A stretch of DNA of 63,437 bases, the filler included. It is 11 parts of 11 records of this genome, joined end to end, with 100 filler letters (N's around TTAATTAATTAA, not from the genome) between each part and the next. Parts side by side here need not be neighbours in the genome. Positions count along the whole stretch, not along the records: positions 42,700 to 45,784 come from SRR11831585_429; 10 more parts are not named here. The stretch is one strand, 5' to 3'. Shown piece after piece: positions 7,972-63,437 of the stretch (its first letter is position 1; every line of letters starts with the position of its first letter). The translations under genes were made by a program, and so were the position numbers. The notes under the pieces are model-generated. The model saw only the letters and a list, made by a program, of their open reading frames with translations, was not told the origin of the DNA and made no database searches.

Positions 7972-8208
7972 TCAGGCAAGACGCATAATCCAGGCATCAG
8001 ATTGTTGATCGTAACGGGTACGGTAAAGGACAGAGTGTTCGCCATTTAGCAGGGCAGGGATACTGGTTTCAGCATCCCAGGCATCCAGTTGCATACATAA
8101 ATCGGGGTCAGATTTACAAGGAATGGTTAACGTTCGATCACCTGGCGATTCACCGTGTAATTCGCCGTCGTCGATTTCAAAAGCGCCTATGCGCACACTG
8201 GTTTTCAT
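7972..8208 (-). CDS. yebV: DUF1480 family protein YebV
   Basis: 78 aa MKTSVRIGAFEIDD, synteny. Confidence 0.88.
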   Translation of the reverse strand: MKTSVRIGAFEIDDGELHGESPGDRTLTIPCKSDPDLCMQLDAWDAETSIPALLNGEHSVLYRTRYDQQSDAWIMRLA

Positions 8209-8325
8209 CTTCGTGCTCTCCATTTAGCTGCCGATTGTGGTACGACCAGTCCGATCGCACCATTTTTCAGCCTAGTTGAGGCAGCCGAATGTGCCAGTCA
8301 AAAAGTGCGCTTTTTTTGTGCGCTG

Positions 8326-8809
8326 TCAGGCGTTACCGGTAAAAAGTTTCCCATCGCGCACCAGTTCACGCGGATAGCTGTTTTTCAATCGCGAACCAAT
8401 CCGTTTGGCTAAACCAATCGGTTGATGCTGGAAAGTAACCAATACATCATCCGCCACTGGCGCGGCTTGCGGGTAAACATCGCGCCCGCGATACCACTCC
8501 TCCGCTTCCTGCGGTGTCAGCTCGAATGCATTCATATTATCGGGTGAGGCAAGAGCAATAACCGCTTCATGCTGCCAGCGATAACCTTTGTTGTGCGTCT
8601 CGGCAAGTTTAATCCCCAACCGAGAAAATCGGACTTTACCGATCAGGGCTTCAATGCCCACCGGGAACAACCACAGTTCTTTGTCACGCTGCCAGAGGCG
8701 CAGGTTTTCATCCCAGTTTAAGCCAACACCTGTAGCCGCCTGACGAATTTGTCCAGCTTCGCGATCTTTCACCGGGCTGAACGGAAAATTACCGACTTTG
8801 TATTTGGGG
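8326..8809 (-). CDS. rsmF: 16S rRNA m5C1407 methyltransferase, 3' part (contig-truncated)
   Basis: C-terminal [16 protein letters not shown]-like region; synteny with yebV. Confidence 0.92.
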
Positions 8810-8909
8810 NNNNNNNNNNNNNNNNNNNNNNNNNNNNNNNNNNNNNNNNNNNNTTAATTAATTAANNNNNNNNNNNNNNNNNNNNNNNNNNNNNNNNNNN
8901 NNNNNNNNN
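8810..8909. other. Artificial contig spacer N44-TTAATTAATTAA-N44; copies at 11481, 13900, 40317, 42600, 45785, 53504, 56354, 59196, 61300
   Basis: Ten identical 100-bp spacers, core has stops in all six frames. Confidence 0.99.
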
Positions 8910-11452: not shown

Positions 11453-11814
11453 CTGCATTGGATCGAAAACGCATAAAAAANNNNNNNNNNNNNNNNNNNN
11501 NNNNNNNNNNNNNNNNNNNNNNNNTTAATTAATTAANNNNNNNNNNNNNNNNNNNNNNNNNNNNNNNNNNNNNNNNNNNNCACACACATACACACACACA
11601 TACACAACACGTGAGACGCGTAAGACAAGGAACGATGGCGGATGCAGACATAGGTATGGCATAGAACAGAAAGAGAGTTGATGGCGACAAAGAGCAAGCA
11701 ACAAGACGATACACAAGATGAGCGGGACGCATCTTATCAGACGCACGCGTACACATACACACACACACACATACACAAATATGTGGACACATACACCCTG
11801 CGCCATGCACACAC

Positions 11815-13864: not shown

Positions 13865-13999
13865 CTGTCAGACTACACACACACACACACACACACACAN
13901 NNNNNNNNNNNNNNNNNNNNNNNNNNNNNNNNNNNNNNNNNNNTTAATTAATTAANNNNNNNNNNNNNNNNNNNNNNNNNNNNNNNNNNNNNNNNNNNN

Positions 14000-40316: not shown

Positions 40317-41250
40317 NNNNNNNNNNNNNNNNNNNNNNNNNNNNNNNNNNNNNNNNNNNNTTAATTAATTAANNNNNNNNNNNNNNNNNNNNNNNNNNNN
40401 NNNNNNNNNNNNNNNNCCCTCGCGCCCGGGCGCGCATACATTCAGCGATCTGCGCACGGATGGGGCGTTTTCGCAGTCTCGATCGGACAGCAAGTAAAGC
40501 AGCAACCAAACCGATCGCACAGCTAGGCTCCATTAGTTCTGTACGCAGTTTCCTATGACCCGCCTGCGGCCAAGAAGTGGTCTCCTAGTAGCTAGTCCTA
40601 ACCGACTTCACGTCATCTCACGTACACACAGAAACAGACAGGCGCGGTGTCGGTTCATCGACTTGTGCTTGCGTACATAATGCTTCGTTCCCACATATTT
40701 ATGCATCAATATGTTTAGTCGAGAATGATGATGTCGCTTCATTGCCACACAAAACGAGGAGAGATCACCTGAACACTTGAAAAGACCCATAGTCGGTAGG
40801 CACTCCCAATTTGCTACAGAGGTCCGTTACCGTGTTTGGTCGCCTAAGTGTTGCTAATTTTAATAAAACTGATTTTGGCCAAGTAATCCGCTTGAAAATG
40901 TCTTGCTTTCCCATTTCTTGTAAGGATGAGGATGTCACGTTTACCATTGAGCTTTATAGCGGGAGTAGGGACATCATACACGTTGTGCTGCTGATGAGTT
41001 GTATTACACATCGCCGATGAACTAGTTCGTCTAGTTCTCTTGCGCAGCTCACACACCAATTGCACGCGTTTCGATCGATCGATATATAGGAGAATCTCAG
41101 GAGATATAGCGCGAGATGAAGTGACACACAGGGGTGGGAAAATCTGCGTGTGATCGTGCAGCTGTGTTTGCTGCCAATCACACACAGAAACACACCACAC
41201 TTTCACAGTGTTTGCCTCTGTGAACATTCTCTCTCTCCCGTTTTCACACA

Positions 41251-42585
41251 ATGTCGGCTCCCACGCAACTTTTCGGACCCTATCGCGCCACACTCATCCA
41301 GGGCGGCATCATCGTGCGATGGATGGAGTATGGTGAAGGTGTTCCTGTTGTTCTTGTTCACGGCATGGGAACCAGCCCGATGGTTTGGCGTGATGTCGCC
41401 CCCCTGCTCAACAACGTGAAATTGTACGCGTGGGAGATGGTGGGATACGGCGAGTCTATGCATGAGGGAATCAATCGAGATATCTCTGTGTCAAAGCAGG
41501 CGGACTATCTGCTCGCGTGGATGAGGGTATGTGTTGTTTGTGTGACTTCATCTGCAACATGTCTGATCTCGTTGTGTAGGCGATCGGCTTGGATCGTGCG
41601 GTTTTGGGCGGACATGATATTGGTGGCGGTGTTGTTCAGATCGCTGCGACTCGAGAACCTTCCGCCTGTGTGGCGTTGTTTCTGACCAACACCATCTGTG
41701 ATGGCGCGTTCCCGTCGCAGCAGATGCTGTTGTTCAAGCGAATGGGATGGTATGTGTATTTGAATGTTGTTTGATTTGCGCGGGTTTCTCATGCGGTGAT
41801 GGTGGGATTTCGCAGGATCTTGGACAAGATGCCCAATGCAGTTTTCAAGACCGTCTTCAAGAAAATGATGGATCGAACGCATGACACCCAGGAAGCTGCA
41901 GACGCTGCGTTCAACTTGTACTGGCCTCTATACGGCAGCACAGGTACTTCCCCATCCCCGATCCCCGATGCGTCGATTCCTCACGCACCTGTTTTGTGTT
42001 TTGTGCTTGACAGGTGACGCCGTGCGTGCATTCACGCTCCAGGCCAAATCTCTCCGTCGCTCCGATGTGGAAGGCATCTCCGATCGCCTCGCCATGATGC
42101 GTGTGCCCACTCGGATGGTATGGGGCGCCTCGGACGAATGCAACCAGCTGCGGGCCGGTGAACAGCTTGCGACCGAACTGCACGCGCCCATGTATACGCT
42201 CATTACGGGCAGGCATGCGACACCGGAGGATCATCCGGCGGTGGTGGCTGCGGAGATTCTATCGCTGGTGCACTCGGTCAGGCATCACTGCCCACGGTCG
42301 TCGTCGTCACGTTCCGAAACGCCGGCGATTGGTGGGACGGTGCGAGATGCGGAGCACGGTGGGGTGTTCCTGCAGAACCGCACACACACTACTACCACCA
42401 CCAACACCAACACCAACACCACAACAACCAACACCAACACGTCCACCACCAGCCATGATAACAGTCATAGTGTGGTGGAGGCGGGATCGAGTTGCACGGT
42501 GGCGCTGCACTGTGAGATGGCGCGGGAGGAACGGCGCCTGGGGACACGGCCCAACAGCAGCCAGCTGCCCGCGATTGCACGCTGA
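41251..42585 (+). CDS. Alpha/beta hydrolase (Asp nucleophile, epoxide hydrolase/dehalogenase-like); exons 41251-41526, 41580-41749, 41816-41943, 42014-42585
   Basis: VHGMGTS, EMVGYGES, GHDIGG, VWGASD, GRHATPEDHP; three phase-consistent GT-AG introns. Confidence 0.88.
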
Positions 42586-42908
42586 GAGAGAGACGGGATN
42601 NNNNNNNNNNNNNNNNNNNNNNNNNNNNNNNNNNNNNNNNNNNTTAATTAATTAANNNNNNNNNNNNNNNNNNNNNNNNNNNNNNNNNNNNNNNNNNNNG
42701 TGTGTGTGTGTGTGTGTGTATGCGTATGTTTCGCAGACTTAGAGGGTGTGGTGTGTTAGTAGTCTTGCCTGCGTTAGTAGTTTCGGTGACAGTTGCATGC
42801 CTTTACGTATGTTTTGTGTGTGTCTGTTTATGAATGTACAATTGCTGAGAAGAAGGCGTGTGCAAAGTTGAGACACTGCGCATCTTTTTTAATACTTCTG
42901 CGTTGCAG

Positions 42909-44233
42909 GTATCTCGATGACGGTTACGACGTGATTACGTTAATCGCCTCCTGTGGCCTTATGCTCAAACACGAGTGGCCGTTGCTGCTTCCGAGCGATG
43001 AGAATGTTCAAATGCTCGGGAAACGAACATTTGATATCTGCGAATATGTGGTGAACTTGGCTCGCGAGGAAGGGGTATGACTCACTTATCTACATTTTTC
43101 GCGTGTGTGTGGTCGTCATATGTCTGTATATCTGTACAGCAACATGAGCACGATGTCTGTGACTGTTTCGTGCCACGTATGTGTAAGCAAGCGTTTGAGT
43201 TTGTATGTTCTTTCCAGCTGCAGGGTACATGTTGTGTGTTCTTTTTTAAATTTATGTGTGTGCGTGTGTGCGTGTGGTTTTCCATATTAATTCCTCTTCG
43301 TTGTAGGGTCTTGCGCCCGGCATGCAGCCGGTATCCGAGCCTGTGGTGGTGCATCATGCTTGTCATGCGCGTGCGCAGAATATTGGCTTCAAGGTACGGT
43401 TTACGTTTATCGTTGTTGTTGTTTTCACTTTCTCACTGATTGTGTCATGGGCTGCGATTCTGTCGTGAGCCGTGTTGATTGTATGAGTTGGGCCTTATGC
43501 TTGTTTATGTGTGTCTGTGTGTATCTGCTTTGGAGAAATTCCTCAGCTGAAACGGAGCGTTCTGTATCCTCACAGGCAGTGTTTAACGCTTGCATGTATA
43601 ATCACACTCCTTTCACTCACAAAATTCAATTGCAATGTGTGCAGTCGCTGGAAATGTTGAAGTTGGTTCCTCAGCTCAAGCCAACCTTCTCGGAGCGTTG
43701 CTCGGGGCATGGTGGGTCCATTGGCGTGAGTTCCGTATGTTGCTGTTGTTGTCCCTCGTGAACAGAAGAGTGCCCGTGCTAACGTGTGGTTGTGTGCACG
43801 TAAATTGTTGTGTGTGTGCAGGAGTACCACGACACGGCCATCAAGCTATGCAAGCCGGTGGCGTCGCGTGTGAACCGTGTTGCGGAGAAAGGTACGCCAG
43901 GTCCGTGCGTGCTCGATTCTCTTCTGGAAAGTGCGCACAACCAGCTGTTGTCTCGGTTCACAACTGTGAGTTTCCCCCTCCTTGTCGCTCATACTCGTTC
44001 TCGCAGCACAAGGGGACGTGTTGGTGGTGAGCGACTGTCCGCTGGCTGCGAAACACATCGTGCAAGTCGCGGGAGGCTCCCAGCCGCGCAACCACCATCC
44101 CATTGAGATCATGGCCAGTGCGTATGGGCTGCGACCCCTGCCAGCCGCAACAACACACAGGGGAAGCCGTGCGGAGAGGACACGTACGCGAACACAGTCT
44201 GCCGTTGCTGCTACTGCGAGCGGTGTAGCGTGA
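42909..44233 (+). CDS. CCG-domain Fe-S oxidoreductase (GlpC/HdrB-like, RFO-type), C-terminal part; exons 42909-43074, 43307-43393, 43645-43734, 43822-43891, 44007-44233
   Basis: Spliced ASCGLMLKHEWP...FDICEY...HHACHARAQNIG...ERCSGHGG...VSDCPLAAKHI...HPIEIMASAYGL. Confidence 0.85.
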
Positions 44234-44421: not shown

Positions 44422-44721
44422 CTATGGCTTGAATGCGGTTCCATCTGCACTCGGCCTTTTCACGGACACTGCATGAAACCACCCAATTGCAGACCCGTTG
44501 AACGTAATAACGACCTTCTTCGTTCCGAGCGAACTCAACGTGGAAGATGGCTTCACCGGGTTGGACTTGGCGGCCGATTCGCCATCAACAGCATACACGA
44601 GATGTATCCTCACCTTATCGGGCACCTTCATCACACTCTTTACAAAATCTTGCAGTGCATCCTCTGCGTTCACATCGACAACGCTCTCAGCCTGCACTCC
44701 ATATTGCCACCGCACCAGCAT
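44422..44721 (-). CDS. Small hypothetical protein (99 aa, possibly ubiquitin-like beta-grasp)
   Basis: MLVRWQYGVQ... ORF with protein-like composition, fits between flanking genes. Confidence 0.45.
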   Translation of the reverse strand: MLVRWQYGVQAESVVDVNAEDALQDFVKSVMKVPDKVRIHLVYAVDGESAAKSNPVKPSSTLSSLGTKKVVITFNGSAIGWFHAVSVKRPSADGTAFKP

Positions 44722-45048
44722 TTCCCCGCTACACGCAACCACCACCACTCCCAGCAGCCTTGCAGATAAGCCACAGCCCGCGCGGCCCACACAGAAATTC
44801 GTTGCCCCGCATATTTCGTACACACAGCGTGTCTGGTAAAGCACACAGCGATCGAGTTGATCGAAGGCCGCGATCGCCCGATCCGGGAAAAACGAATACG
44901 TCAGCACGCATTCGCAGCAAACACAGCTTCTGCACCGTGGAGCAAAACAGCGTATCTTGTCCCCGCATCGCGCTGGATGCCGCTGGTGGTGTGTTTCGGA
45001 CGCAGATAATTGTGTGGAGCTCATAGCTCGGTTATTGTTCCCTTTCGC

Positions 45049-45779
45049 ATGATGGCCCCGCTGTCGCAGCTGGCCGTGACCGAGCAGCCCGTCGGCTACG
45101 TGGAGCGTGAAACGAGAGAATGGAGGAACAAGCTGCGGTCTTTGCTGCTCAAGCTGATGTTCTTTCAGTATTTACCACTGCTGGTGTTGGCGTACATTTA
45201 CGCAGGCCCCGATTTTCCCTTCCGGACATTTCTCGCGTCCTGGTTTGCTTGCGTCGTTTCGTTCAGCTCCCCTCTTCCCGCTGAGTCAGCTTTTATTCTG
45301 GCGAATCTTTCGCTGACAATTATCATGTTTTACATGGGCTATACTTCGACTGGCATATTTGCTCTCGCCAGCTTCCATACGTCCCTTACTCCGATTTTCT
45401 CCGCGGTTACGGGCGGTCGCTTGGCCTCATTCATGGGGACTGTGCAAATGGTGTTGATATACGTGGTCTTCGCGTACCTGCATCAGCACTCTATGATCCC
45501 TCCCGCCACCATCACAATTCTTGGTGTCGCCCCGATATATTGGGCGTCAAACGTGATCATGAACGTGACAATGTATGTGCGATTTCCGTTGTTGGCCCGC
45601 ACTTATTATAACGCACTCACTCCTATGTTGCGCTATTTGTAGATACCCGTACTGTGTCAATCGATTGCTGAAGCCGTTGTTGGATTTGCGAGAGCAGACG
45701 CGCCGAAGACGCAAGGCGACGGACGAATTGTTTAAAGCTAATCGCCATATTCAACAATCACTGGCACGCTACTCTCATG
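45049..45779 (+). CDS. Membrane sensor histidine kinase, N-terminal part; exons 45049-45572, 45643-45779
   Basis: Several TM helices, then charged helix and ANRHIQQSLARYSH resembling the HisKA H-box ANxAKSxFLAxMSHE; ends at GTATG donor. Confidence 0.62.
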
Positions 45780-45884
45780 GTATGNNNNNNNNNNNNNNNN
45801 NNNNNNNNNNNNNNNNNNNNNNNNNNNNTTAATTAATTAANNNNNNNNNNNNNNNNNNNNNNNNNNNNNNNNNNNNNNNNNNNN

Positions 45885-45912
45885 GGATAAGGCGTTCACG
45901 CCGCATCCGGCA
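45885..45912. repeat. REP element at contig edge
   Basis: GGATAAGGCGTTCACGCCGCATCCGGCA. Confidence 0.85.
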
Positions 45913-45917
45913 AGTGG

Positions 45918-47090
<1,173 letters not shown>

Positions 47091-49280
47091 TTAAGCCGTT
47101 TTCAGGTCGCCAACCGGACGGGCTGGCTCAACCGGAGGATAGTACGGTTCGTTATGACGCGCTTTATTACGCAGACCTTCCGGCACTTCATACAGCGGGC
47201 CGAGGTGCTGATATTGCTGTGCCATATCGAGGTATTTTGCGCTACCGAGGGTGTCCAGCCAGCGGAACGCGCCGCCGTGGAACGGAGGGAAGCCCAGGCC
47301 GTAGACCAGCGCCATATCCGCTTCCGCCGGAGTGGCGATAATGCCTTCCTCCAGACAGCGCACCACTTCGTTGACCATCGGGATCATCATGCGGGCGATA
47401 ATCTCTTCTTCGCTGAAATCGCGCTTCGGCTGGCTCACTTCTGCCAGCAGGTCTTCAACGGCGGCGTCTTCTTCTTTCTTCGGCTTACCTTTGCTGTCTT
47501 CTTTATAACGCCAGAAACCGAGGCCGTTCTTCTGACCAAAGCGGTTGGCATCAAACAGCGCGTCGATGGCATCGCGGTAATCTTTCTGCATCCGCTGCGG
47601 GAAGCCTGCTGCCATGACAGCCTGAGCGTGATGCGCGGTATCAATGCCCACAACGTCCAGCAGATATGCCGGGCCCATCGGCCAGCCAAACTGTTTTTCC
47701 ATCACTTTGTCGATCTTGCGGAAATCCGCGCCGTCGCGCAGCAGCTGGCTGAAACCGGCGAAATACGGGAACAGCACGCGGTTAACAAAGAAGCCGGGGC
47801 AGTCGTTAACCACAATCGGCGTCTTGCCCATCTTGCTCGCCCAGGCGACAACTTTCGCGATGGTTTCGTCGGAGCTTTTCTCGCCGCGAATAATTTCTAC
47901 CAACGGCATTCGGTGGACCGGGTTAAAGAAGTGCATCCCGCAGAAGTTTTCCGGGCGTTCCAGCGCGTTGGCCAGTTCGCTGATAGGAATGGTTGAAGTG
48001 TTAGACGCCAGCACGGTATCCTGGCGTACTTTTTGTTCGGTTTCTGCCAGTACGGCTTTTTTCACTTTCGGGTTTTCAACAACCGCTTCTACCACAATAT
48101 CCACGCGGTCAAATCCGGCGTAGTCGAGCGTTGGGTGGATTGTGGAGATCACGCCAGCCAGTTTCAGACCATCGATCTTGCCGCGCTCAAGCTGCTTGTT
48201 CAGCAGTTTCGCGGCTTCGGTCATGCCGAGGGTTAACGACTTGTCGTTGATATCTTTCATGACAACCGGCACGCCTTTCCACGCAGACTGGTAAGCGATG
48301 CCGCCGCCCATAATGCCTGCACCCAGCACCGCGGCCTGTTTCGGGGTTTCAACGTCTTTGGTGAGTTTCTTCGCTTTGCCTTTTACATATTGATCGTTAA
48401 GGAAAATGCCGACCAGTGCGCGGGCTTCGTTGGTATGCGCCAGCGGGACAAAACTTTTGTTTTCCAGGTTTAAGGCTTCTTCACGACCAAAACGGGCCGC
48501 AGCTTCAATGGTTTTTACTGCGGTGATGGGGGCCGGATAATGTTTCCCCGCTGTTTGTGCGACCATCCCTTTAGCGATGGTGAAGCTCATGGTGGCTTCA
48601 ATCTTGCTCAGTTTTAGTGGTTCCAGCTTCGGCTGACGTTTTGCTTTCCAGTCGAGGTCGCCGTTAATGGCCTGGCGTAAAACCGCCTTTGCGCCTTCAA
48701 CCAGTTTTTCTGCTTTGACTACGCCATCCACCAGACCGATTTTCAGCGCCTGATCCGCGCCGACATCTTTACCGGCGGCAATGATTTCCAGCGCACTGTC
48801 AGCGCCCAGCATACGTGGCATACGTACAGAACCGCCAAAGCCAGGCATGATGCCCAGTTTGGTTTCCGGCAGACCGATGCGCAGATCCGGCGTCGCCAGA
48901 CGATAATCGGTCGCCAGCACGCATTCGCAGCCACCGCCCAGCGCATAGCCATTGACGGCAGCAATGGTCGGCACCGGCAGATCTTCCAGGCGATTAAACA
49001 CGCTATTGGCAAAGTGCAGCCACTGACTTAACTGTTCTTCAGGAACGAGGAACAGGGACAAAAATTCGGTGATATCAGCACCGACGATAAAGGCTGCTTT
49101 GTTCGAACGCAGCAGCAGCCCTTTTAGATCTGATTGCTGTTCCAGCACGCCGATGGCCTCGCCGAGGCTGGCGACGGTCGCAGTGTCGAGTTTATTAACT
49201 GAACCTGGGGCATCAAATACCAGTTCGGCAATGCCATCTTCCAGCCAGTCAAGGTACAGGGTGTCGCCTTTGTAAAGCAT
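47091..49280 (-). CDS. fadB: Fatty acid oxidation complex alpha subunit
   Basis: 729 aa from MLYKGDT; crotonase plus 3-hydroxyacyl-CoA dehydrogenase domains. Confidence 0.98.
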
Positions 49281-49305
49281 GTCAGTCTCCTGAATCCGCA
49301 AGGTG

Positions 49306-49322
49306 ATCTGGTCGTACCAGAT
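49306..49322. promoter_or_regulatory. FadR operator
   Basis: ATCTGGTCGTACCAGAT 17-bp palindrome upstream of fadB. Confidence 0.92.
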
Positions 49323-49469
49323 GAGTCGAAGTGTGTATTTTGTGTTAAAAATATGCAAACAAAAGATTAAAGAAATGCCGATCTGATCACGCTCGGCAGA
49401 AATCACGCTCTGGATGAACGATGTGCTAAGATGCGGAGACTTAAGGTCAAAAAAACAGAAGGGTAAAAA

Positions 49470-50801
49470 ATGGAATCACTGGCCTCGCTCTATAAAAATC
49501 ATATAGCTACCTTACAAGAACGGACTCGCGATGCGCTGGCGCGCTTCAAGCTGGATGCGTTACTTATTCACTCCGGCGAGCTGTTCAATGTTTTTCTCGA
49601 CGATCATCCCTATCCGTTTAAAGTGAACCCGCAATTCAAAGCGTGGGTGCCGGTAACTCAGGTGCCAAACTGCTGGTTGCTGGTGGATGGCGTGAACAAG
49701 CCGAAACTGTGGTTCTATCTGCCGGTTGATTACTGGCACAACGTCGAACCGCTGCCGACCTCTTTCTGGACTGAAGATGTGGAAGTGATCGCGCTGCCGA
49801 AAGCCGATGGCATTGGTAGCCTGCTGCCTGCTGCGCGCGGCAATATCGGTTATATCGGTCCGGTGCCGGAACGTGCGCTGCAACTGGGTATTGAGGCCAG
49901 CAACATCAACCCGAAAGGGGTTATCGACTACCTGCATTACTATCGCTCCTTCAAAACTGAGTACGAACTGGCCTGTATGCGTGAAGCGCAGAAAATGGCG
50001 GTCAACGGTCACCGCGCGGCAGAAGAAGCGTTCCGTTCTGGCATGAGCGAGTTCGATATCAACATTGCCTATCTGACCGCGACCGGTCATCGTGATACCG
50101 ACGTACCTTACAGCAACATTGTGGCGCTTAACGAACACGCTGCGGTACTGCATTACACCAAACTGGACCATCAGGCACCGGAAGAGATGCGCAGCTTCCT
50201 GCTGGATGCCGGGGCAGAATATAACGGCTATGCGGCTGACCTGACCCGTACCTGGTCGGCAAAAAGTGACAACGACTACGCGCAGCTGGTGAAGGACGTT
50301 AATGATGAACAACTGGCGCTGATCGCCACCATGAAAGCAGGCGTCAGCTATGTGGATTACCACATCCAGTTCCATCAGCGCATCGCCAAACTGCTGCGTA
50401 AACATCAAATCATCACCGATATGAGTGAAGAAGCGATGGTCGAAAACGATCTTACCGGGCCGTTTATGCCGCATGGTATCGGCCATCCGCTGGGCCTGCA
50501 GGTGCATGACGTCGCTGGTTTTATGCAGGATGATAGCGGTACGCACCTCGCGGCACCGGCAAAATATCCGTACCTGCGCTGCACCCGTATTCTCCAGCCG
50601 GGCATGGTGTTAACCATCGAACCGGGTATCTACTTCATCGAATCGCTACTGGCACCGTGGCGTGAAGGGCAGTTCAGCAAGCACTTCAACTGGCAGAAAA
50701 TTGAAGCACTGAAACCGTTCGGCGGCATTCGTATCGAAGACAACGTGGTGATCCACGAAAACAACGTGGAAAACATGACCCGGGATCTGAAACTGGCGTG
50801 A
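49470..50801 (+). CDS. pepQ: Xaa-Pro dipeptidase
   Basis: M24 motifs HGIGH, TIEPG, IRIED. Confidence 0.97.
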
Positions 50802-51415
50802 TGGAAAGCTGGTTAATTCCTGCGGCACCGGTCACGGTCGTTGAAGAGATCAAAAAGAGCCGCTTCATAACGATGTTGGCGCATACCGATGGCGTTGAGG
50901 CGGCGAAAGCGTTTGTTGAATCGGTGCGGGCAGAACACCCCGATGCCCGGCACCATTGCGTGGCGTGGGTCGCGGGTGCGCCGGATGATTCTCAACAGCT
51001 GGGTTTCTCTGACGACGGGGAGCCGGCGGGAACGGCAGGTAAACCGATGCTCGCCCAGCTAATGGGCAGCGGCGTCGGGGAAATTACCGCTGTGGTAGTG
51101 CGCTACTACGGCGGCATATTGCTTGGCACCGGTGGGTTAGTGAAAGCGTATGGCGGCGGCGTGAATCAGGCGCTGCGCCAGCTAACGACCCAACGCAAGA
51201 CGCCATTAACCGAATATACTTTGCAATGTGAATATCATCAGTTAACCGGCATTGAAGCGTTGCTGGGGCAGTGTGACGGCAAAATTATCAACAGTGATTA
51301 TCAGGCATTCGTTCTGCTGCGGGTGGCGCTTCCGGCGGCGAAAGTGGCTGAATTTTCCGCAAAGCTGGCGGATTTTAGCCGTGGTTCATTGCAATTGTTA
51401 GCGATTGAAGAATAA
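50801..51415 (+). CDS. yigZ: IMPACT family protein
   Basis: SDDGEPAGTAG, RYYGGILLG. Confidence 0.96.
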   Translation: MESWLIPAAPVTVVEEIKKSRFITMLAHTDGVEAAKAFVESVRAEHPDARHHCVAWVAGAPDDSQQLGFSDDGEPAGTAGKPMLAQLMGSGVGEITAVVVRYYGGILLGTGGLVKAYGGGVNQALRQLTTQRKTPLTEYTLQCEYHQLTGIEALLGQCDGKIINSDYQAFVLLRVALPAAKVAEFSAKLADFSRGSLQLLAIEE

Positions 51416-51453
51416 TCCCCACTTCGTTTTGCAGAACTAAGGAAGCGGCAGAG

Positions 51454-52905
51454 ATGCATTTTCGCGCCATTACCCGAATCGTTGGACTACTGGTCATCTT
51501 ATTTTCAGGGACCATGATTATCCCTGGGCTGGTAGCACTCATCTACCGGGATGGAGCGGGCCGCGCTTTTACCCAGACCTTTTTTGTCGCCCTCGCCATT
51601 GGCTCTATGCTGTGGTGGCCGAACCGCAAAGAGAAAGGCGAACTTAAATCCCGTGAGGGGTTTCTGATAGTGGTGCTGTTCTGGACCGTGCTGGGTAGCG
51701 TCGGTGCGCTCCCTTTTATCTTCTCGGAAAGCCCGAACCTCACGATTACCGATGCGTTTTTTGAATCTTTCTCTGGCCTGACCACTACGGGAGCCACTAC
51801 GCTGGTGGGGCTGGATTCGCTCCCTCACGCCATCCTCTTTTATCGCCAGATGCTGCAATGGTTTGGCGGGATGGGGATCATCGTGTTGGCGGTTGCGATA
51901 CTGCCTATCCTCGGCGTGGGTGGGATGCAGCTCTATCGCGCAGAAATGCCCGGCCCGCTGAAAGATAACAAAATGCGCCCGCGAATTGCGGAAACGGCGA
52001 AAACCCTGTGGTTGATTTATGTCTTGCTGACCGTCGCCTGTGCGCTGGCGTTGTGGTTTGCCGGAATGGATGCCTTTGATGCCATCGGCCATAGCTTTGC
52101 GACTATCGCTATTGGCGGCTTCTCGACACATGATGCCAGTATCGGTTATTTCGATAGCCCGACTATTAACACTATCATTGCTATCTTCCTGCTGATCTCC
52201 GGCTGTAACTACGGTCTGCACTTTTCACTGTTAAGTGGGCGTAGTCTGAAGGTTTATTGGCGCGATCCGGAATTTCGCATGTTTATCGGCGTACAGTTTA
52301 CGCTGGTGGTTATTTGTACCCTCGTACTGTGGTTTCATAATGTCTACAGTTCGGCGCTGATGACAATTAACCAGGCGTTTTTCCAGGTGGTGTCGATGGC
52401 GACAACCGCCGGGTTTACAACTGACAGCATTGCCCGCTGGCCGCTCTTTTTGCCGGTACTGCTTTTATGTTCAGCCTTTATCGGCGGTTGCGCCGGGTCA
52501 ACGGGCGGTGGCCTGAAGGTGATCCGCATCCTGCTGCTGTTTAAGCAGGGGAACCGTGAGCTGAAACGACTGGTGCATCCGAACGCCGTCTATAGCATTA
52601 AGCTGGGGAATCGCGCACTGCCGGAACGTATCCTCGAAGCCGTTTGGGGATTTTTCTCCGCCTATGCATTGGTGTTTATTGTCAGTATGCTGGCGATTAT
52701 CGCCACGGGCGTGGATGACTTTTCTGCCTTTGCGTCGGTTGTTGCGACATTGAATAACCTGGGGCCAGGGCTTGGCGTGGTTGCTGATAACTTTACCAGT
52801 ATGAACCCGGTGGCTAAATGGATCCTGATTGCCAACATGCTGTTTGGTCGTCTCGAGGTCTTTACATTGCTGGTGCTCTTTACCCCGACTTTCTGGCGTG
52901 AATGA
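51454..52905 (+). CDS. trkH: Trk potassium transporter
   Basis: Pore motifs TTTG, AIGG, TTAG, NNLG. Confidence 0.97.
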   Translation: MHFRAITRIVGLLVILFSGTMIIPGLVALIYRDGAGRAFTQTFFVALAIGSMLWWPNRKEKGELKSREGFLIVVLFWTVLGSVGALPFIFSESPNLTITDAFFESFSGLTTTGATTLVGLDSLPHAILFYRQMLQWFGGMGIIVLAVAILPILGVGGMQLYRAEMPGPLKDNKMRPRIAETAKTLWLIYVLLTVACALALWFAGMDAFDAIGHSFATIAIGGFSTHDASIGYFDSPTINTIIAIFLLISGCNYGLHFSLLSGRSLKVYWRDPEFRMFIGVQFTLVVICTLVLWFHNVYSSALMTINQAFFQVVSMATTAGFTTDSIARWPLFLPVLLLCSAFIGGCAGSTGGGLKVIRILLLFKQGNRELKRLVHPNAVYSIKLGNRALPERILEAVWGFFSAYALVFIVSMLAIIATGVDDFSAFASVVATLNNLGPGLGVVADNFTSMNPVAKWILIANMLFGRLEVFTLLVLFTPTFWRE

Positions 52906-52916
52906 TGGAGTAATAC

Positions 52917-53462
52917 GTGAAAACATTAATTCTTTTCTCAACAAGGGACGGACAAACGCGCGAGATTGCCTCCTACCTGGCTTCGGAACTGAAAGAACTG
53001 GGGATCCAGGCGGATGTCGCCAATGTGCACCGCATTGAAGAACCACAGTGGGAAAACTATGACCGTGTGGTCATTGGTGCTTCTATTCGCTATGGTCACT
53101 ACCATTCAGCGTTCCAGGAATTTGTCAAAAAACATGCGACGCGGCTGAATTCGATGCCGAGCGCCTTTTACTCCGTGAATCTGGTGGCGCGCAAACCGGA
53201 GAAGCGTACTCCACAGACCAACAGCTACGCGCGCAAGTTTCTGATGAACTCGCAATGGCGTCCCGATCGCTGCGCGGTCATTGCCGGGGCGCTGCGTTAC
53301 CCACGTTATCGCTGGTACGACCGTTTTATGATCAAGCTGATTATGAAGATGTCAGGCGGTGAAACGGATACGCGCAAAGAAGTTGTCTATACCGATTGGG
53401 AGCAGGTGGCGAATTTCGCCCGAGAAATCGCCCATTTAACCGACAAACCGACGCTGAAATAA
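52917..53462 (+). CDS. hemG: Protoporphyrinogen IX dehydrogenase (menaquinone)
   Basis: Flavodoxin-like STRDGQT. Confidence 0.96.
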
Positions 53463-53483
53463 GCATAAAGAATAAAAAATGCG

Positions 53484-53503
53484 CGGTCAGAAAATTATTT
53501 TAA
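53484..53503 (+). promoter_or_regulatory. rrnA P1 UP element; contig breaks at the rRNA operon repeat
   Basis: CGGTCAGAAAATTATTTTAA directly after hemG. Confidence 0.8.
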
Positions 53504-53603
53504 NNNNNNNNNNNNNNNNNNNNNNNNNNNNNNNNNNNNNNNNNNNNTTAATTAATTAANNNNNNNNNNNNNNNNNNNNNNNNNNNNNNNNNNNNNNNNN
53601 NNN

Positions 53604-56204
53604 TACAATACCCAACACGTACGTTATTCTCGGGACGATACACATGTTCACCAGCGCTATCGCCTGTGATGTTGTGAGTCGCTTGGCTCTGATGATGTGG
53701 CATATGTAGTCCACACTGGCTTTGAGTGCTTTGAAGGCGGGCTTCCACTCCAAAGCCGTCGTGAACAGAATGCCAAGATATCTCCATGATTCGTACGGGT
53801 GACGCACAGGTATCTCCTCCCCTCGTATTGTGATGTGGGGGTTGTATGTGTCCGTGCGTTGTCCTCTCCAATACGCAATGTGGCTTTTTGCGGGGTTGCA
53901 TGTCATTCCCACTGCGTCTAAATATTCCGTCATCCTATTCACTGTGTCTTGCAGTGCATCCTTACTCTCCTCGAATAGGGAGACATCATCAGCGTACGCA
54001 CATACCGACACCTTTGTTGCGTCTCCAAGATGGAAGCCTTTGCTGTGCTCTTCCAACATGCACAGCAGAGGGTCCATGAAGACCGCAAACAGGAGCGGAC
54101 TTAGTGCATCTCCCTGCATGATGCCGCGTTCCAAGGGGAAAGGATCGGTGAGACCATGACCCGTGCGTACCTGTATTGACGTCAGCTTGTGCATCGTCGT
54201 TATGAACTCGATTAGTGGTGCAGGGAATTGAAGGCGACGCATCGCAGCCTCAAGTGCCCAGTGCTCCACACTGTCAAATGCTTTGGTCAGGTCCATGCTC
54301 GCAAGGTACAGGTGTTCCTTTGCGGAGTGTGCGTGCTCAATTGCGTTGAGCATCGTAATGATATGTTTCTTCGTTCCTCCTCCGTGTAGGAAGGCCCCTT
54401 GACACGGGTTGAGGATCATTGACAGCGAGTCACGTAGTCGTGACGCAACGATCTTACTCATCACCCTTATCGCGAGAGGCAAAAGGGCGATCGGTCTCGT
54501 ATTCCGCAGCACTCTCGGGTCGGTTTGACCCTTACGCTGAGGACTCATCTCAACTGAAATCTCACCGATATGCGATGGATTTCGGAAACATTCCGTAATC
54601 ATCTCGCGCAGGCCCTCTCGGGCTTGCGTTCCGAGAGATTTGAGGTGCGCAGGGCTGAGCTGATCATGTCCGGGTGCCTTATCGAGTGCGAGGTCGCGCA
54701 GGACATCATCGAGCTCATCCACCGTCACCTCACCCAGCGCGCAGGACCACATGTCCGCACGTACGGGTTTGTGAGTAGGTATGTTTCTGATCATCACTTC
54801 TGCATGTTCATGCGCTCTCACTTTGCTAGACGATATGTCCGCAAAGTATCTTCTTACCGCGCACTTCACCTGATCAGGTGAAGTGATTACGCTGTCATTG
54901 TCCTTCACCATCATAATACTCACAGGAGTGTTCTGCTCAAATAGCTTGCGGATTTGAGGTTTGCGCCAGCCCCTATTCCGCTCATATTCTATGCATCGCT
55001 GTGTCCAGCGATCTCGTATCACCTCGCGACGATGCGCCCGTATGGTACGTATCTCGCGCTGTTCATATACTTTCAGTATGTTCTTGCTCAACATACTGTA
55101 ATGTCTCCAATATCTGACACTTGATGTTGTCAGAGGTGTCAATTTCTCGTCTCGCGCTGCAGCTTTGATGATGCAGCGTTGCAACTCACTTGAGGCGTAG
55201 AACACCTCGTTCTCTACATTCGCAGCCAGTTCTCTGTCTAAGACAGTGATCAGCTTGCGTATCAACTTTGACTTTGAGTGTAGGATCGCCGCCTCCTTCC
55301 CGTGAGTTGGGAATGACGAACGCACACCCAGTGTATTTCTTGCAATGCGAGCCAGATGCAGAGACCATTCACGCAGAGATTCGCATGCGGTCAGTTGCTC
55401 TGCGTCGCGAACGTATAACGCATCTTTATCGGTGCGTGCACTTGTTCTATGCGGCTGTTGTAAGTACGATCGTTTAACGGGTCGTACAGGTACAATGCCG
55501 TAATTATCTTGCAACACCGCGATGAGGGCGTCATGATCCGCCACACCGAGGTGCGTAGTACACTTCTCTATCCCATCCAGTAATGAACGAGATGCAAACA
55601 TGTAATCAATCCTCGAGTTGTGACCGTGGGTTAAACCTTTTGCTGTAGGATGTTTTGCGCGGAAAACATCTACAAGGTTGCACCCTGAGGCCCACAACTG
55701 AAGATATCTTCCTCGCGTAGTGTTGCTGATCGCGGTGTCATTCGTGTTGAAGTCACCCGCGATTAGAACACTAATGCTCTGATCATGCGCAGCCACAGTA
55801 ATGGTACGCAATTTCTTCAATATCCTCTTGTACAGAGGGTCCGTGGTGCTTCCTGCAGGTAAGTAGGTGCTTACCAGTTGCAGTTGCGTTACTTCTGTTC
55901 TTAGTATCACAGATATGATACGTCCTTCACAATGCTTCTCAACATTGTGCACAAAATGAGCCATGTTTGGATGTAGGGCTATTGCAGTCCCTGCGTGTCC
56001 ATTCATGTCATCTTGATGCACATGTATCTCATATCCCAGTGCGTAACGCACTGAGCGTATATCTCTCTCATTCCGGAGTTGATGGTCCTGCAGAAGCAGG
56101 ACCTCCGGCTGTTCTTTCTGTATTATCTCTTTGAGAAGGTGCAGGTGTAAGGGGTGTAAGAGGCTGTTTGTGTTTACATTAAAAATTTTCATGATTGTTG
56201 TCAT
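53604..56204 (-). CDS. LINE ORF2: APE endonuclease and reverse transcriptase (3' truncated)
   Basis: NVNTNSL, GDFN, RIDY, ADH; KAPGHD, RPIALL, DLTKAFD, QGDALSPLLF, YADD, YLG. Confidence 0.95.
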
Positions 56205-56213
56205 ACAGTGTGT

Positions 56214-56351: not shown

Positions 56352-56470
56352 TGNNNNNNNNNNNNNNNNNNNNNNNNNNNNNNNNNNNNNNNNNNNNTTA
56401 ATTAATTAANNNNNNNNNNNNNNNNNNNNNNNNNNNNNNNNNNNNNNNNNNNNATTTGCTTGTCACATAC

Positions 56471-58543: not shown

Positions 58544-59331
58544 GAGGGTGCGTTCGTTGATACGGTGCATGTGCATTGCCGCGGCGTGTTAGCGTAGAGG
58601 CATTCTGTACACGTGCTGCTGTGTGATGTTCGGGTCTATCGGGTATGGCATATCGCACGAGTAAGCGCACCTTGAGTCACATATGCTGTTGAAGTCGCAT
58701 GATGCAGAAACCCCGAGGAAAATGACACCTTCTGCTCTGTATCAGCGGTAAGGTCTCTGCTCATTATTGGTGCCTGTTCTGATATGTGTGCAGAACAACC
58801 ACGTAGCACCCCTATTGTACAATGAGTTGTGGTTGTACGTGTGTGAAGGAATGGCCTTGAGCCAATATAATGAATTCACAATCAATTTGTTTATAGATTT
58901 TCCACTTGCGCAAACTTACAGCACCACCGTCTATATGTAATTCATCAAATATTCTTAATCCCTAAGCTCACGTAATACACATCATAGGTCACTGCACTAC
59001 CACACCCCACACACAACAACACACAACGCCAAAGACACACACACTCATAGATACCGAACGAATTTGAAAGAGAATTCGTAGTCACCAGCACACATACACA
59101 TGCCGTGGCTCAAACAGTCAACAGACAACGAAGTGAGCCACACGCACGCACACGCATACGGGCGCGGCACACACACACACATACACACACACACANNNNN
59201 NNNNNNNNNNNNNNNNNNNNNNNNNNNNNNNNNNNNNNNTTAATTAATTAANNNNNNNNNNNNNNNNNNNNNNNNNNNNNNNNNNNNNNNNNNNNTGCAC
59301 CACACACACCCCTCCCGAGTACCACGCGTAC

Positions 59332-61080
59332 CGCGGTCTGGGCTCGTCTGTGCAGGAACAGCACGGCATACGCAAACACGTATCGCAGAATGAATTGCGC
59401 CAGGAAGGGGTCCGCCATGAAGGACAAGACCGCACTGTCTACATCTGTAACGACAGAACACACAGATGTGAGCACACACACACACATACATTATTCACAG
59501 CCATACAGCACAAGAGACCGCCGGCATCGGATACCGTGATACTGAGTGGGTGCAAAACACACGACATACAACATCTCAGTAGACGGTACCTGGTTCAGCC
59601 GCCATGACACCGGCAATCGCCGACAAGACAGCCTGTGTCTGCTGGATCGCACGCTGAAGGACGGGGGCGGCCGGCGGTGCCAACAGACCCGCAGCCACAC
59701 AGAACGCAGCAAGGGGCGAGTGGAGGAAGCTTGTCAGCAGTCCTCCGTTGCGGGCATCTGAAAGCAAATGAGGGGGCATATTTGAGATAAATGCAGGTTA
59801 TTCATGATTTCGTGCACAGACGATGTGGGCGCGCACACCGACGAGAAACAGTCATAAACTGCAAATATAGCGGCACTTGCACCACGAACGCGTTATTGCG
59901 CATGCACAAGCAGCCAAACGTACCGGTGATGGGCTGCTTAGGAGAGAGCATCACCACAACCGGCTGGTTGAAACATCCGCGGACCGACTGCACACATACA
60001 CACAGAAACACACGCGTCATAACACACGCAAGTGCAAACCACAAGGCCCAACATCACGGCATCCAGTCTGTTACACGACACGCACTCACTAGAACAACAG
60101 AATGCGTGTACGCAGAACGCTGTAAGCAAAGCACGCGTGTACCAACGATACGAGGACGAACCTCGAAAGCAGAGGCGTTATCGGAGTCAACGACCAGGAA
60201 GAGGGGCCGTCGTGTGAAGGGCATGACATCGGTCGCGTATAAAACACATTGTGGAGTCGGGACAGAAGACTTGTGACGGAGATAGACACCTCCAGCGGAA
60301 AATATGCTGTTACTCTCGGGTGCGTCTACAATACGACACGACACACAGAAAGACGTAACAAAGGAAGTCAGCAAATGAAGAGAAAAATACATGGAAAAGG
60401 ATAGCGACGGAACCACACAGCCGGTGGAGAGGCACCTGTAGTCACAGGAGAATACCGGAACAGATAAACAGAACAGATAATCAGATGGGGACAGTTCCGC
60501 ACACATACACGTGGTGAACCAAACACAAAAAGCACACGCAACACTTGACACACCCTCACGCACCTGCAGGTACTGAGTATCCGTCTGCGGAGATATAGAG
60601 CATGGTGGCTCCATTCTCACCGCTCTCCTATACAGACACGTATAGATAGTTAAGTACAGAAACACACACACATACACACACGAGCAGTATCAAAACAGAA
60701 CCACGAACAAGAGCGAATTGGGAGTGTATACCTTGGTGCACGTAGCCATGCATATCATAAGCTGCTCCACGCTGGGTCGGTGCAGCACACACTTGTGCGG
60801 ATTCGCCGTGTTATCCTAAAACAGGATTATGTTAATCCCATTCCCAAATCACCGCGACTCTAGCGACCCTGCAAAGTATCTCGCGCATGCAACAAAAGAA
60901 TATCGCAATTCATATATGAGTCGAATTGTTGATAAACACTCGCTAATAAAATAAACGATAAGAGGAACGCACCTGCAGAAACAGCACGCGGTCCTGTGCG
61001 CTCTGATCACTGACAGCGACCTCGAACTCGAGGCTCTGAACCATGCGGTAGGCGTCGACCGACAACTCACTGAATTTGGT
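59332..61080 (-). CDS. SCAI: Protein SCAI homolog, internal part; exons 61080-60973, 60815-60732, 60627-60564, 60325-60162, 59987-59924, 59757-59590, 59444-59332
   Basis: Spliced KFSELSVDAYRMVQSLEFE, NPHKCVLHRPS, LYISADG, PFTRRPLFLVVDSDN, FNQPVVVMLSP, FLHSPLAAF, DPFLAQFILRYVF in SCAI order. Confidence 0.9.
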
Positions 61081-61399
61081 CTGAAGCGAAGACAACAGAT
61101 AAACAGTCAGAACAGAGTGATATGAATATAGCGGTGTAGTGCACCGAGACACATATCCAAACATTCTGAAGCATTACGGTGAGGCAGCGACAAATCAGCA
61201 GGCATGATAATATCTGAGGAAGAAGAAACAACGCACGAGATATAGTGAGAAGCACACACACACAAACATACGCACACACACAACACACACACACACACAN
61301 NNNNNNNNNNNNNNNNNNNNNNNNNNNNNNNNNNNNNNNNNNNTTAATTAATTAANNNNNNNNNNNNNNNNNNNNNNNNNNNNNNNNNNNNNNNNNNNN

Positions 61400-62560
61400 G
61401 CTAACCCAGATAACGTTAAGAATGAGCTAGCTCAATACGATGTTATTCCTGAAGAGTGGGGCGGTGAGAATATCTTCGTTCATATCTCTGCAAAACAGGG
61501 TACAAACATTGATTCACTACTTGAGTCTATCCTTTTACAAGCAGAAGTTCTTGAACTCACTGCAGTTAAAGATGGTATGGCTTCTGGTGTTGTCATCGAA
61601 TCACGCCTAGATAAAGGCCGTGGTCCAATTGCAACTGTTCTTGTACAGTCAGGTACTCTGAACAAAGGTGATATCGTACTTTGTGGTCAGGAATATGGCC
61701 GTGTTCGCGCAATGCGTGATGAAGTTGGTAACGAAGTTAACGAAGCTGGTCCTTCTATCCCGGTAGAAATTCTAGGTCTTTCTGGTGTTCCTGCGGCGGG
61801 TGACGAAGCGACAGTTGTACGTGATGAGCGTAAAGCGCGTGAAGTTGCAAACTATCGTCAAGGTAAGTTCCGTGAAGTGAAACTGGCTCGCCAGCAGAAA
61901 TCTAAACTAGAGAACATGTTCTCTAATATGACTGCGGGTGACGTTTCTGAACTGAACATCGTACTGAAAGCTGACGTACAAGGTTCTGTTGAAGCAATTT
62001 CTGATTCATTAGTGAAACTATCTACTGATGAAGTAAAAGTGAACATTGTAGGTTCAGGTGTTGGTGGTATTACAGAAACAGATGTAGTACTAGCAGCAGC
62101 TTCAAACGCTATCGTTGTTGGCTTTAACGTTCGTGCTGATGCATCAGCTCGTCGTGCAGTTGAAAACGAAAATATCGATCTACGTTACTACTCAATCATC
62201 TACCAATTGATTGATGAAGTTAAAGCGGCAATGAGCGGTATGCTTGCTCCAGAATTCAAGCAAGAAATCATTGGTCTTGCTGAAGTTCGTGACGTGTTTA
62301 AGTCACCGAAACTGGGTGCAATCGCTGGTTGTATGGTTACTGAAGGTACAATCAAGCGTAACAGCCCAATTCGTGTACTACGTGATAACGTGGTTATTTA
62401 CGAAGGTGAACTTGAATCGCTACGTCGCTTTAAAGACGACATGCAAGAAGTTAAGAACGGTTATGAGTGTGGTATCGGCGTTAAGAACTACAACGATGTT
62501 CGCGTAGGCGACCAAATTGAAGTATTCGAAACGGTTGAGATTCAACGTACCATCGATTAA
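61400..62560 (+). CDS. infB: Translation initiation factor IF-2, 3' part (Vibrionaceae-like)
   Basis: ISAK, LDKGRG, KADVQGS, ECGIG; AT-richer codon usage than the E. coli contigs. Confidence 0.97.
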
Positions 62561-62652
62561 TTCGTTAAAATTGATGAGACCTAATGATTATTCGTTAGTC
62601 ATAATGGCTCATCAACTAGAACAAACGGCAATGTTCGGTTGTTGAATACGCC

Positions 62653-62692
62653 ATGGGGGAGTGGGATTACCATTCCCCCATTCTTTCTATTT
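62653..62692 (+). terminator. Hairpin/terminator between infB and rbfA
   Basis: ATGGGGGA...TCCCCCAT followed by T-rich tract. Confidence 0.55.
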
Positions 62693-62704
62693 AGTGAGAA
62701 AATT

Positions 62705-63100
62705 ATGCCAAAAGAATTTAGCCGTACTCAGCGTGTGGCTCAGCAACTACAAAAAGAACTAGCGATGATCCTTCAACGCGAAGTTCGTGATTCTCGATTG
62801 GGAATGGTGACCATTTCTGATGTAGAAGTTTCTCGTGACCTTGCTTACGCTAAAGTGTTCGTCACTTTCTTATGTGTAGGCGAGCAAACACCAGAATCAT
62901 GTTTAAAAGCATTACGTGAGCATGAAGCTCATATTCGTATGATGCTTGGTAAACGTATTCGCTTACGTCTAACACCTGAAATTCGTTTCCACTATGACAG
63001 TACCTTAGTAGAAGGTATGCGTATGTCGAACCTTGTTTCTGAAGTAGTCAGTACCGATAAGCGTAAGCAAAAAGATGCGGGTCGCGAGGACGAAGAGTAA
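62705..63100 (+). CDS. rbfA: Ribosome-binding factor A
   Basis: [29 protein letters not shown]. Confidence 0.96.
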
Positions 63101-63437
63101 TGGCTCGTCGTCGTAAAGGGCGTCCGATAAATGGTGTGGTGCTGATTGATAAACCAACCGGCATCTCATCAAATGATACCCTGCAAAAAGTTAAGCGCCT
63201 TTTCTTTGCAGAAAAGGCAGGACATACCGGTGCGCTAGATCCTCTAGCAACGGGTATGCTTCCGATCTGCTTGGGTGAAGCAACTAAGTTTTCTCAGTTT
63301 CTGCTCGATTCCGATAAACGTTATCGCGTGATCGCAAAATTGGGTGAGCGTACTGACACATCAGATTCAGATGGTGAAGTAGTTGAAACTCGTGAAGTGA
63401 ACGTAGACCGCGAAACTCTGATCCGTTGTATCGAAAA
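63100..63437 (+). CDS. truB: tRNA pseudouridine-55 synthase, 5' part
   Basis: TAATG overlap with rbf[20 protein letters not shown]. Confidence 0.96.

Follow-up and report, generated by a model that had tools for sequence, protein, structure and literature searches.

A 5'-truncated, intron-bearing eukaryotic gene for an RFO-type Fe-S protein, a further member of the published rubrerythrin-RFO-DUF3501 system

The protein RFO was named by Cardenas et al. 2016, who defined it on the basis of the gene arrangement rubrerythrin-RFO-DUF3501, and in the available passages of that paper it is proposed to substitute for the lost rubredoxin domain (PMC5114695). A eukaryotic counterpart was described by Gray et al. 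2020, where the available text reports nuclear genes for RFO, DUF3501 and an aerobic-type rubrerythrin in many protist lineages, with products that are mostly predicted to be mitochondrial and with an alphaproteobacterial origin (PMC7050145). The eukaryotic trio was reported for more than 20 species in that year, and in Andalucia the three genes are, according to the same text, unlinked and their products predicted to be mitochondrial (PMC7050145). RFO has been reported in Amoebozoa, Mantamonas, Rigifila, Gefionella, Naegleria and other Heterolobosea, as well as in hemimastigotes, Ancoracysta, cryptists, glaucophytes and Developayella, and it is given as absent from Opisthokonta, Metamonada, Euglenozoa, Alveolata and Chloroplastida (PMC7050145). 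The published distribution is one of mitochondria, and the system as a whole is absent from Metamonada in Table S3(C) (PMC7050145). From this broad but patchy distribution Gray et al. argue, in the text available, that the system was present in LECA (PMC7050145). Later papers, in the excerpts available, cite the trio as an established ancestral bacterial trait found in scattered protist mitochondria (PMC8134430, PMC12699882).

Here we describe the 3' part of a further gene of this kind, and compare it with the protist and bacterial RFO genes and with the related CCG-domain proteins.

The truncated gene on contig 6

The window, by which we mean the whole stretch of 63,437 nt that was analysed, consists of 11 unrelated contigs that were joined and are divided by ten 100-nt spacers (N44 + TTAATTAATTAA + N44). 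E. coli chromosomes are 100% identical to contigs 1 (1-8809), 4 (14000-40316) and 7 (45885-53503), which explains the enterobacterial sRNA, thermometer and tRNA matches in Rfam, and contig 11 carries infB and rbfA from another bacterium. The eukaryotic share of the window is only about 15 kb. Other contigs are eukaryotic in look, with an S10 carboxypeptidase exon, a LINE-like ORF, SCAI and an intron-bearing alpha/beta hydrolase gene; when proteins of 147-471 residues were searched, the S10 peptidase ORF on a neighbouring contig had one match at E<=1e-10, which was 41% identical. As the assembly is heavily contaminated, the eukaryotic nature of any bacterial-type gene in it needs to be demonstrated first.

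The RFO-type gene sits on contig 6 (42700-45784, 3085 nt). On the plus strand of 42909-44233 we confirmed the five exons and four phase-consistent GT-AG introns of the original prediction, with the intron lengths that it had given (Table 1). The spliced exons give 212 codons with no internal stop, followed by TGA, and an unspliced read of the same interval meets 6 stops. Exon sequence is 58% G+C, against 45% G+C and 37% T in the introns. The intron ends (GTATGT.., ..TGTAG/..TGCAG) resemble those of the alpha/beta hydrolase gene on contig 5 (GTATGT..TGTAG at 41527-41579). The gene is therefore eukaryotic and nuclear, as had been proposed; four of its GT..AG introns are present in full, and the upstream sequence looks like the end of a fifth intron.

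Table 1. Features of the RFO-type gene and its 5' surroundings, in window coordinates
Feature	Coordinates	Strand	Details
Artificial spacer	42600..42699		N44 + TTAATTAATTAA + N44; outside the gene; separates two unrelated contigs
Further upstream intron, 3' part (apparent)	42700..42908	+	T-rich tract and CAG at the end; 38% T, like the other introns
Exon 1	42909/42910-43074	+	1 base of a split codon + 55 codons; begins YLDDGYDVITLIASCGLMLKHEWPLLLP; last Cys of first CCG domain
Intron	43075-43306	+	232 nt, phase 0, GTATGA..TGTAG
Exon 2	43307-43393	+	29 codons; HHACHARAQN motif; tblastn E 2e-5
Intron	43394-43644	+	251 nt, phase 0, GTACGG..TGCAG
Exon 3	43645-43734	+	30 codons; ERCSGHGGSIG; tblastn E 4e-4
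Intron	43735-43821	+	87 nt, phase 0, GTATGT..TGCAG; 96 nt with alternative donor
Exon 4	43822-43891	+	70 nt = 23 codons + 1 base; linker helix, poorly conserved
Intron	43892-44006	+	115 nt, phase 1, GTACGC..CGCAG
Exon 5 (last)	44007-44233	+	SDCPLAAKH, HHPIEIMASAYGL, 33-residue tail; TGA 44231-44233; tblastn E 2e-6

The exons were tested against chance by tblastn of a full-length relative, P0001, against both strands of the whole window. This gave four collinear matches on the same strand, in exons 1, 5, 2 and 3, with E 4e-18 for exon 1, and the next-best match anywhere in the window was at E 0.09. Exon 4 (23 residues) had no tblastn match of its own in the whole window, and its support consists of the reading frame and of gap-free continuity in the spliced alignments. 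For the third intron there is an alternative in-frame donor at 43726 (GTGAGT), with which the final three codons of exon 3 would be lost; with the 87-nt intron of the original prediction, and so the longer exon 3, relatives align gap-free. All the motifs quoted in the original prediction are present in the spliced peptide (ASCGLMLKHEWP, HHACH, ERCSGHGG, SDCPLA and HPIEIMASAYGL), and the spliced alignments show no counterpart in relatives of its C-terminal tail of 33 residues.

Contig 6 starts directly after the spacer, and the gene is therefore truncated at its 5' end. Relatives align from 42910 onward only, and the apparent extensions upstream of this position are not conserved. What remains is about 40% of the protein, with the second CCG domain complete and, of the first, only the last Cys; about 265 residues of the bacterial-length form are absent, and more for the eukaryotic forms. 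The ferredoxin-like domain, most of the first CCG domain, the site of the eukaryote-type insert and any presequence lie off the contig, and a comparison of relatives with all contigs gave no match to N-terminal RFO exons elsewhere in the window.

Relatives, phylogeny and origin

A search with exon 1 led to one longer protein, P0001, of 442 residues and 62% identical, which has two CxxCxxCxxxC ferredoxin-type motifs and a single Pfam CCG match at residues 203-286. The best 120 relatives of P0001 are 65-88% identical to it, and the named members among them belong to Rhodospirillaceae, other Alphaproteobacteria and unclassified 'Proteobacteria'. The spliced peptide aligns with the C-terminal 175 residues of these bacterial proteins of about 442 residues, and its residues 1-179 are 42-53% identical to all 120 of the 120 alphaproteobacterial relatives (best E 3e-58).

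In a scan of 1.84 billion representatives P0001 had 5814 matches at E<=0.001, and the best 150 of the 5814 were used further. Sixteen of these 150 are extended at the N-terminus, have an insert following the ferredoxin domain, or show both features, and are called eukaryote-like in the following; it should be noted that this is a proxy label, and that only P0122 of the 16 is verified as eukaryotic. P0122 (503 residues) is the RFO of Andalucia godoyi letter for letter, as far as the table in PMC7050145 shows. The bacterial loci that were matched over the full query length have spans of 1326-1368 nt, without room for an insert of the eukaryote type.

In the main tree (IQ-TREE, 86 rows, 180 columns) the window peptide falls inside a 100/99 clade of 50 rows, together with 15 alphaproteobacterial RFOs, the 16 eukaryote-like rows and 18 further representatives, and this RFO clade leaves out GlpC, GlcF and 34 other representatives. 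The joining of alphaproteobacterial and eukaryote-like proteins in one clade agrees with Fig. 7 of Gray et al., going by its legend (PMC7050145). The bacterial ancestry that the original prediction put forward is consistent with this tree and with Gray et al. 2020, both of which point to an alphaproteobacteria-like source.

Within the same RFO family, the gene may have been inherited from the mitochondrial ancestor or have been acquired laterally at a later time, with an alphaproteobacterium as donor. A crown alphaproteobacterial clade (100/99) leaves the window peptide outside in both the 86-row and a 55-row tree, and the free trees set it among insert-bearing eukaryote-like rows, which speaks against a later transfer. 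Its nearest rows are mostly eukaryote-like, with a sister that differs between the trees; in the 86-row tree it is sister to P0130 at 100/80 (568 residues, Arg-rich N-terminus, 47% identity to the window peptide), but not so in the 55-row tree. The at least five introns accumulated in the gene, and the presence in LECA argued in the available text of Gray et al. (PMC7050145), count against a later transfer as well. On the other side, the window peptide is closer to neither group, with 42-53% identity to alphaproteobacterial and about 47% to eukaryote-like RFOs. In AU tests one clade of the window peptide and the 15 alphaproteobacterial rows costs 12 log-likelihood units and is not rejected (p-AU 0.29), and one clade of the peptide and the 16 eukaryote-like rows costs 61 units and is borderline (p-AU 0.053), so that the 180 columns do not separate vertical descent from later transfer. 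Only 3 columns discriminate eukaryote-like from alphaproteobacterial RFOs, and the window peptide splits 2 to 1 on them. We consider a later transfer unlikely, and the gene would then probably descend from the mitochondrial ancestor.

At the site of the upstream intron of the window gene, P0203, another eukaryote-like RFO, has 17 extra residues, rich in F, L and K, that look like an unspliced intron. With considerable doubt we speculate that the window gene belongs to a sparsely sampled branch of eukaryotes outside the published list, perhaps with an intron position in common with P0203; the nearest protein to the window peptide is 53% identical, and the S10 peptidase ORF had the single match at 41% given above. 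If P0203 does have an intron at this very position, the nuclear gene for RFO, and the intron with it, would be older than the split of these lineages.

Residue conservation, family assignment and bacterial neighbourhood

Among 83 diverse members the (nearly) invariant Cys residues are C208, C239, C240 and C281 in the first CCG domain and C339, C368 and C408 in the second (P0001 numbering), along with H336, H340 and H430; within the alphaproteobacterial set, H371 and H414 also never vary. Of the columns of the 83-row alignment that lie in the fragment, 2 are invariant and a further 12 reach at least 90% conservation, and the window peptide keeps all 14. An alignment of 136 RFOs has 44 columns in this region with at least 95% conservation; the window peptide agrees at 42 of them, with no Cys or His lost, and its two departures at near-invariant columns are P to A and E to D.

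These two departures, together with the unusual tail of 33 residues and the fact that only a fragment is seen, would suit a decaying or non-functional copy (a pseudogene), or else an RFO that has lost its rubrerythrin partner and works alone or with something else. There is some precedent for the latter, as RFO alone is listed for Parvamoeba monoura in Table S3(C), from transcriptome data (PMC7050145). Against both possibilities stand the 212 codons without stop or frameshift and the conservation just described, and we give them only a small chance beside an intact gene of the system. A tblastn search for rubrerythrin and DUF3501 within the window found neither gene, the best E being 0.6; this search covers about 15 kb of eukaryotic sequence, and the eukaryotic partner genes are reported to be unlinked.

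The assignment to RFO had to be weighed against GlpC (anaerobic glycerol-3-phosphate dehydrogenase subunit C), or a paralogue of the GlpC/GlcF/LutA kind, unrelated to rubrerythrin. Both exon 1 and the relatives have GlpC as their best NCBIfam match, and many of the relatives carry the JGI name 'glycerol-3-phosphate dehydrogenase subunit C'. However, the full-length relatives reach 152-179 bits on the GlpC model (NF008369 / TIGR03379), and P0001 176 bits, under the equivalog cut-off of 278, and exon 1 has 20.2 bits. An RFO profile was built as an HMM from 27 operon-linked RFOs, and over its positions 267-445 the spliced peptide scores 207.1 bits, end to end. In the same region the Andalucia RFO reaches 222.3 bits and E. 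coli GlpC 45.7 bits. Identity to E. coli GlpC (b2243) is 27.6% (E 4e-12). The alignment shows CSGHGG and CPLAxxH in the spliced peptide and in all RFOs shown, against CCGIAG and CETCKWQ in GlpC; CSG and CPLA thus take the place of CCG and CxxC in the window peptide, and GlpC lies outside the 100/99 clade.

The surroundings of the bacterial relatives point the same way. A scan of reference genomes for homologues gave 80 loci, 69 of them with Alphaproteobacteria in the title. A rubrerythrin of about 139 residues without rubredoxin domain is encoded directly upstream of the RFO homologue in 80/80 loci, and a DUF3501 gene directly downstream in 78/80, both misses ending at a contig edge; the definition of RFO by Cardenas et al. 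is based on this same arrangement (PMC5114695). A Fur-family gene lies upstream in 65/80 loci, and the only one scanned, that of locus L001, passes the Irr cut-offs. Pfam scans of two of the loci showed neither glpA nor glpB adjoining the bacterial RFO gene. We regard a GlpC identity as highly improbable, and that the gene encodes RFO, a GlpC/HdrB-related Fe-S protein as originally predicted, is well supported, with the score on the RFO profile, the altered motifs, the tree and the gene order in bacteria as its basis.

With Pfam, none of the five exon peptides, each scanned singly, had a match, PF02754 included, so that formally the fragment itself gives no CCG hit, an outcome that the original prediction had named as a refutation; the PF02754 match of P0001 covers residues 203-286 only and overlaps just the first ~20 residues of the fragment. 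The one NCBIfam match of the exon peptides is the weak GlpC match of exon 1. These near-empty results are explained by the single exon peptides being too short. A CCG relationship of the C-terminal half is suggested by the NCBIfam GlpC alignment and by the predicted-fold matches to LutA and HdrB given below, in which both CCG domains are similar.

Bacterial contamination of contig 6, which the E. coli and other bacterial contigs in the window might suggest, is for practical purposes refuted, since four T-rich GT..AG inserts interrupt the reading frame and unspliced translation meets 6 stops, no aligned protein exceeds 53% identity (223 aligned of 270 compared), and the splice sites resemble those of the hydrolase gene on contig 5, which is eukaryotic.

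Proposed working and comparison with known systems

The AF2 model of P0001 (pLDDT 96.8) matches a LutA model, 9a6l_A (E 1e-9, TM 0.84 on target), and also HdrB (8rwn_B, 5odc_B) and EtfD (9ojn), and a profile search of PDB sequences returned only HdrB, at E 1.6e-4. The predicted fold of DUF3501 has a single match, the solved protein of unknown function 3fjv, which offers no functional lead. We know of no solved RFO structure. HdrB binds two non-cubane [4Fe-4S] clusters by way of full CCG motifs. Such full motifs are absent from the second domain of RFO, which is Cys-poor in a manner specific to RFO and reads C..CSGHGG..CPLAxxH in place of C..CCG..CxxC. Together with a C-terminal HP(I/V)(E/Q) this forms a second-domain signature, which was derived from the alignments made here, is unpublished as a definition, and is present in the spliced peptide. 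As a speculation, the invariant pattern of three Cys plus His in this second domain might build a metal centre that differs from the clusters of HdrB.

Taken together, we suggest, with a probability of about 0.8, that the fragment is the 3' part of a nuclear protist RFO gene with spliceosomal introns, whose product would be mitochondrial and would feed electrons to rubrerythrin. The original prediction had considered a mitochondrion-related organelle as a possible site; the published distribution is in mitochondria (PMC7050145). The protein would be imported into the mitochondrion, bind Fe-S clusters, and pass electrons from a donor to the di-iron centre of a rubredoxin-less 'aerobic-type' rubrerythrin; with these electrons the rubrerythrin would reduce hydrogen peroxide, and DUF3501 would be the third component of the system. 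The proposed electron supply follows Cardenas et al., and the neighbouring irr gene in bacteria fits a role in iron or oxidative stress. The literature searched, in the portions available, holds no experimental test of the rubrerythrin-RFO-DUF3501 system, and nothing on its working, its donor or the role of DUF3501.

As the eukaryotic trio was already in print, the original description of the locus as an unusual system was overstated (PMC7050145). The identification was right and the novelty is low, the window gene being a further member of a published system. Each further intron-bearing RFO gene from a genome nevertheless rules out contamination, which is a real risk beside E. coli contigs, and each further instance at genome level sharpens the map of where the trio was retained and lost.

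Among the described proteins, the window gene compares most directly with the Andalucia RFO. Both are nuclear genes of bacterial type with the same C-terminal motifs, fall in the same 100/99 clade and have similar scores on the RFO profile. The identity is 47.5% over 183 residues and the window gene is not Andalucia's gene; it differs further by its extra C-terminal tail of 33 residues, and only the C-terminal ~40% is present. With the bacterial RFO of the irr-rubrerythrin-RFO-DUF3501 clusters it has in common 42-53% identity, 42 of the 44 conserved columns and the same Cys-poor second CCG domain, whereas the bacterial gene is intron-free and placed between rubrerythrin and DUF3501, and the window gene has introns and no linkage to partners. 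GlpC, the nearest curated NCBIfam model, is alike in overall architecture and fold family, but it retains CCG and CxxC in place of the CSGHGG and CPLAxxH of RFO, lies outside the RFO clade and has other partners. The other CCG-domain electron-transfer proteins, HdrB, LutA and EtfD, have a fold like that of the P0001 model at only 15-21% identity.

The probable upstream intron and the possible C-terminal tail of the RFO gene

P0203, a representative RFO protein labelled eukaryote-like by a proxy (an insert or N-terminal extension), carries a unique 17-residue insert rich in F, L and K at residues ~185-201, which is missing in the 13 other aligned rows. The insert ends one residue ahead of the start of the window's first exon (42909), and the residue in between aligns with the window's split codon. 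From this alignment the insert looks like an in-frame intron that was translated instead of being spliced out, and its position would be that of the window's upstream intron. The alpha/beta hydrolase gene on contig 5 served as the same-genome reference for splice-site style; it has short GTATGT..TGTAG introns (e.g. 41527-41579) and a Thr/Asn-rich low-complexity stretch close to its end.

At its 3' end (44134-44230, +) the RFO frame extends 33 codons beyond the end of its bacterial and eukaryote-like relatives, which stop just after AYGL. This Arg-, Thr- and Ala-rich extension may be either a genuine tail or an unrecognised 3' feature.

Other features of the window

Ten identical spacers of 100 nt (N44 + TTAATTAATTAA + N44) divide the window into 11 separate contigs, and adjacency across a spacer has no meaning for gene neighbourhood.

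Features of the window by position
Feature	Position	Strand	Remark
E. coli contig	1-8809		ptrB-exoX
E. coli contig	14000-40316		rep-ilvC-wec
E. coli contig	45885-53503		fadBA-trkH
infB (C-terminal part), then rbfA	61400-63437 (contig)		43% G+C
Serine carboxypeptidase S10 exon	10112-10918	+	Pfam E 8e-33
Alpha/beta hydrolase gene	41224-42585	+	contig 5
Open frame	44425-45024	-	RFO gene's contig
Open frame	45049-45642	+	RFO gene's contig
870-aa open frame	53604-56213	-	endonuclease/exonuclease/phosphatase and reverse-transcriptase domains
ORF matching eukaryotic protein SCAI	60057-60689	-	PF12070, E 3e-10
Spacers 1-5	8810-8909, 11481-11580, 13900-13999, 40317-40416, 42600-42699
Spacers 6-10	45785-45884, 53504-53603, 56354-56453, 59196-59295, 61300-61399

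Three contigs are each 100% identical to E. coli chromosomes, and the Rfam matches to RyeA/SdsR, the trxA thermometer and tRNA are located on them; within a eukaryotic assembly they represent either a bacterium eaten as food, a cloning host or a contaminant. As the infB part is only 76.6% identical to E. coli infB, its contig is assigned to a second, non-E. coli bacterium. The 870-aa frame, which stays open as far as the end of its contig, represents a LINE-like non-LTR retrotransposon. For the S10 exon the near-length homologue search returned a single protein at E<=1e-10 (41% identity), and this scarcity of homologues suggests a poorly sampled eukaryotic lineage.

The two frames beside the RFO gene had no match in Pfam; their candidate start codons would lie head to head, only ~25 nt apart. 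As leads only, the minus-strand frame is similar over its final 99 residues to DNase II clusters (ESM Atlas score 0.94, 29/30 matches), and the plus-strand frame, whose product looks like a multi-pass membrane protein, resembles bacterial MASE-type membrane modules (Atlas 0.98).

Bacterial rubrerythrin-RFO-DUF3501 loci

Among the 80 bacterial reference-genome loci (L001-L080), seven are titled as other phyla despite an alphaproteobacterial-type cluster (L002, L013, L020, L021, L027, L033 and L034), and these titles may be binning errors in genome bins. A Fur-family gene sits directly upstream of rubrerythrin-RFO-DUF3501 in 65 of the 80, and that of L001 exceeds the Irr cut-offs.
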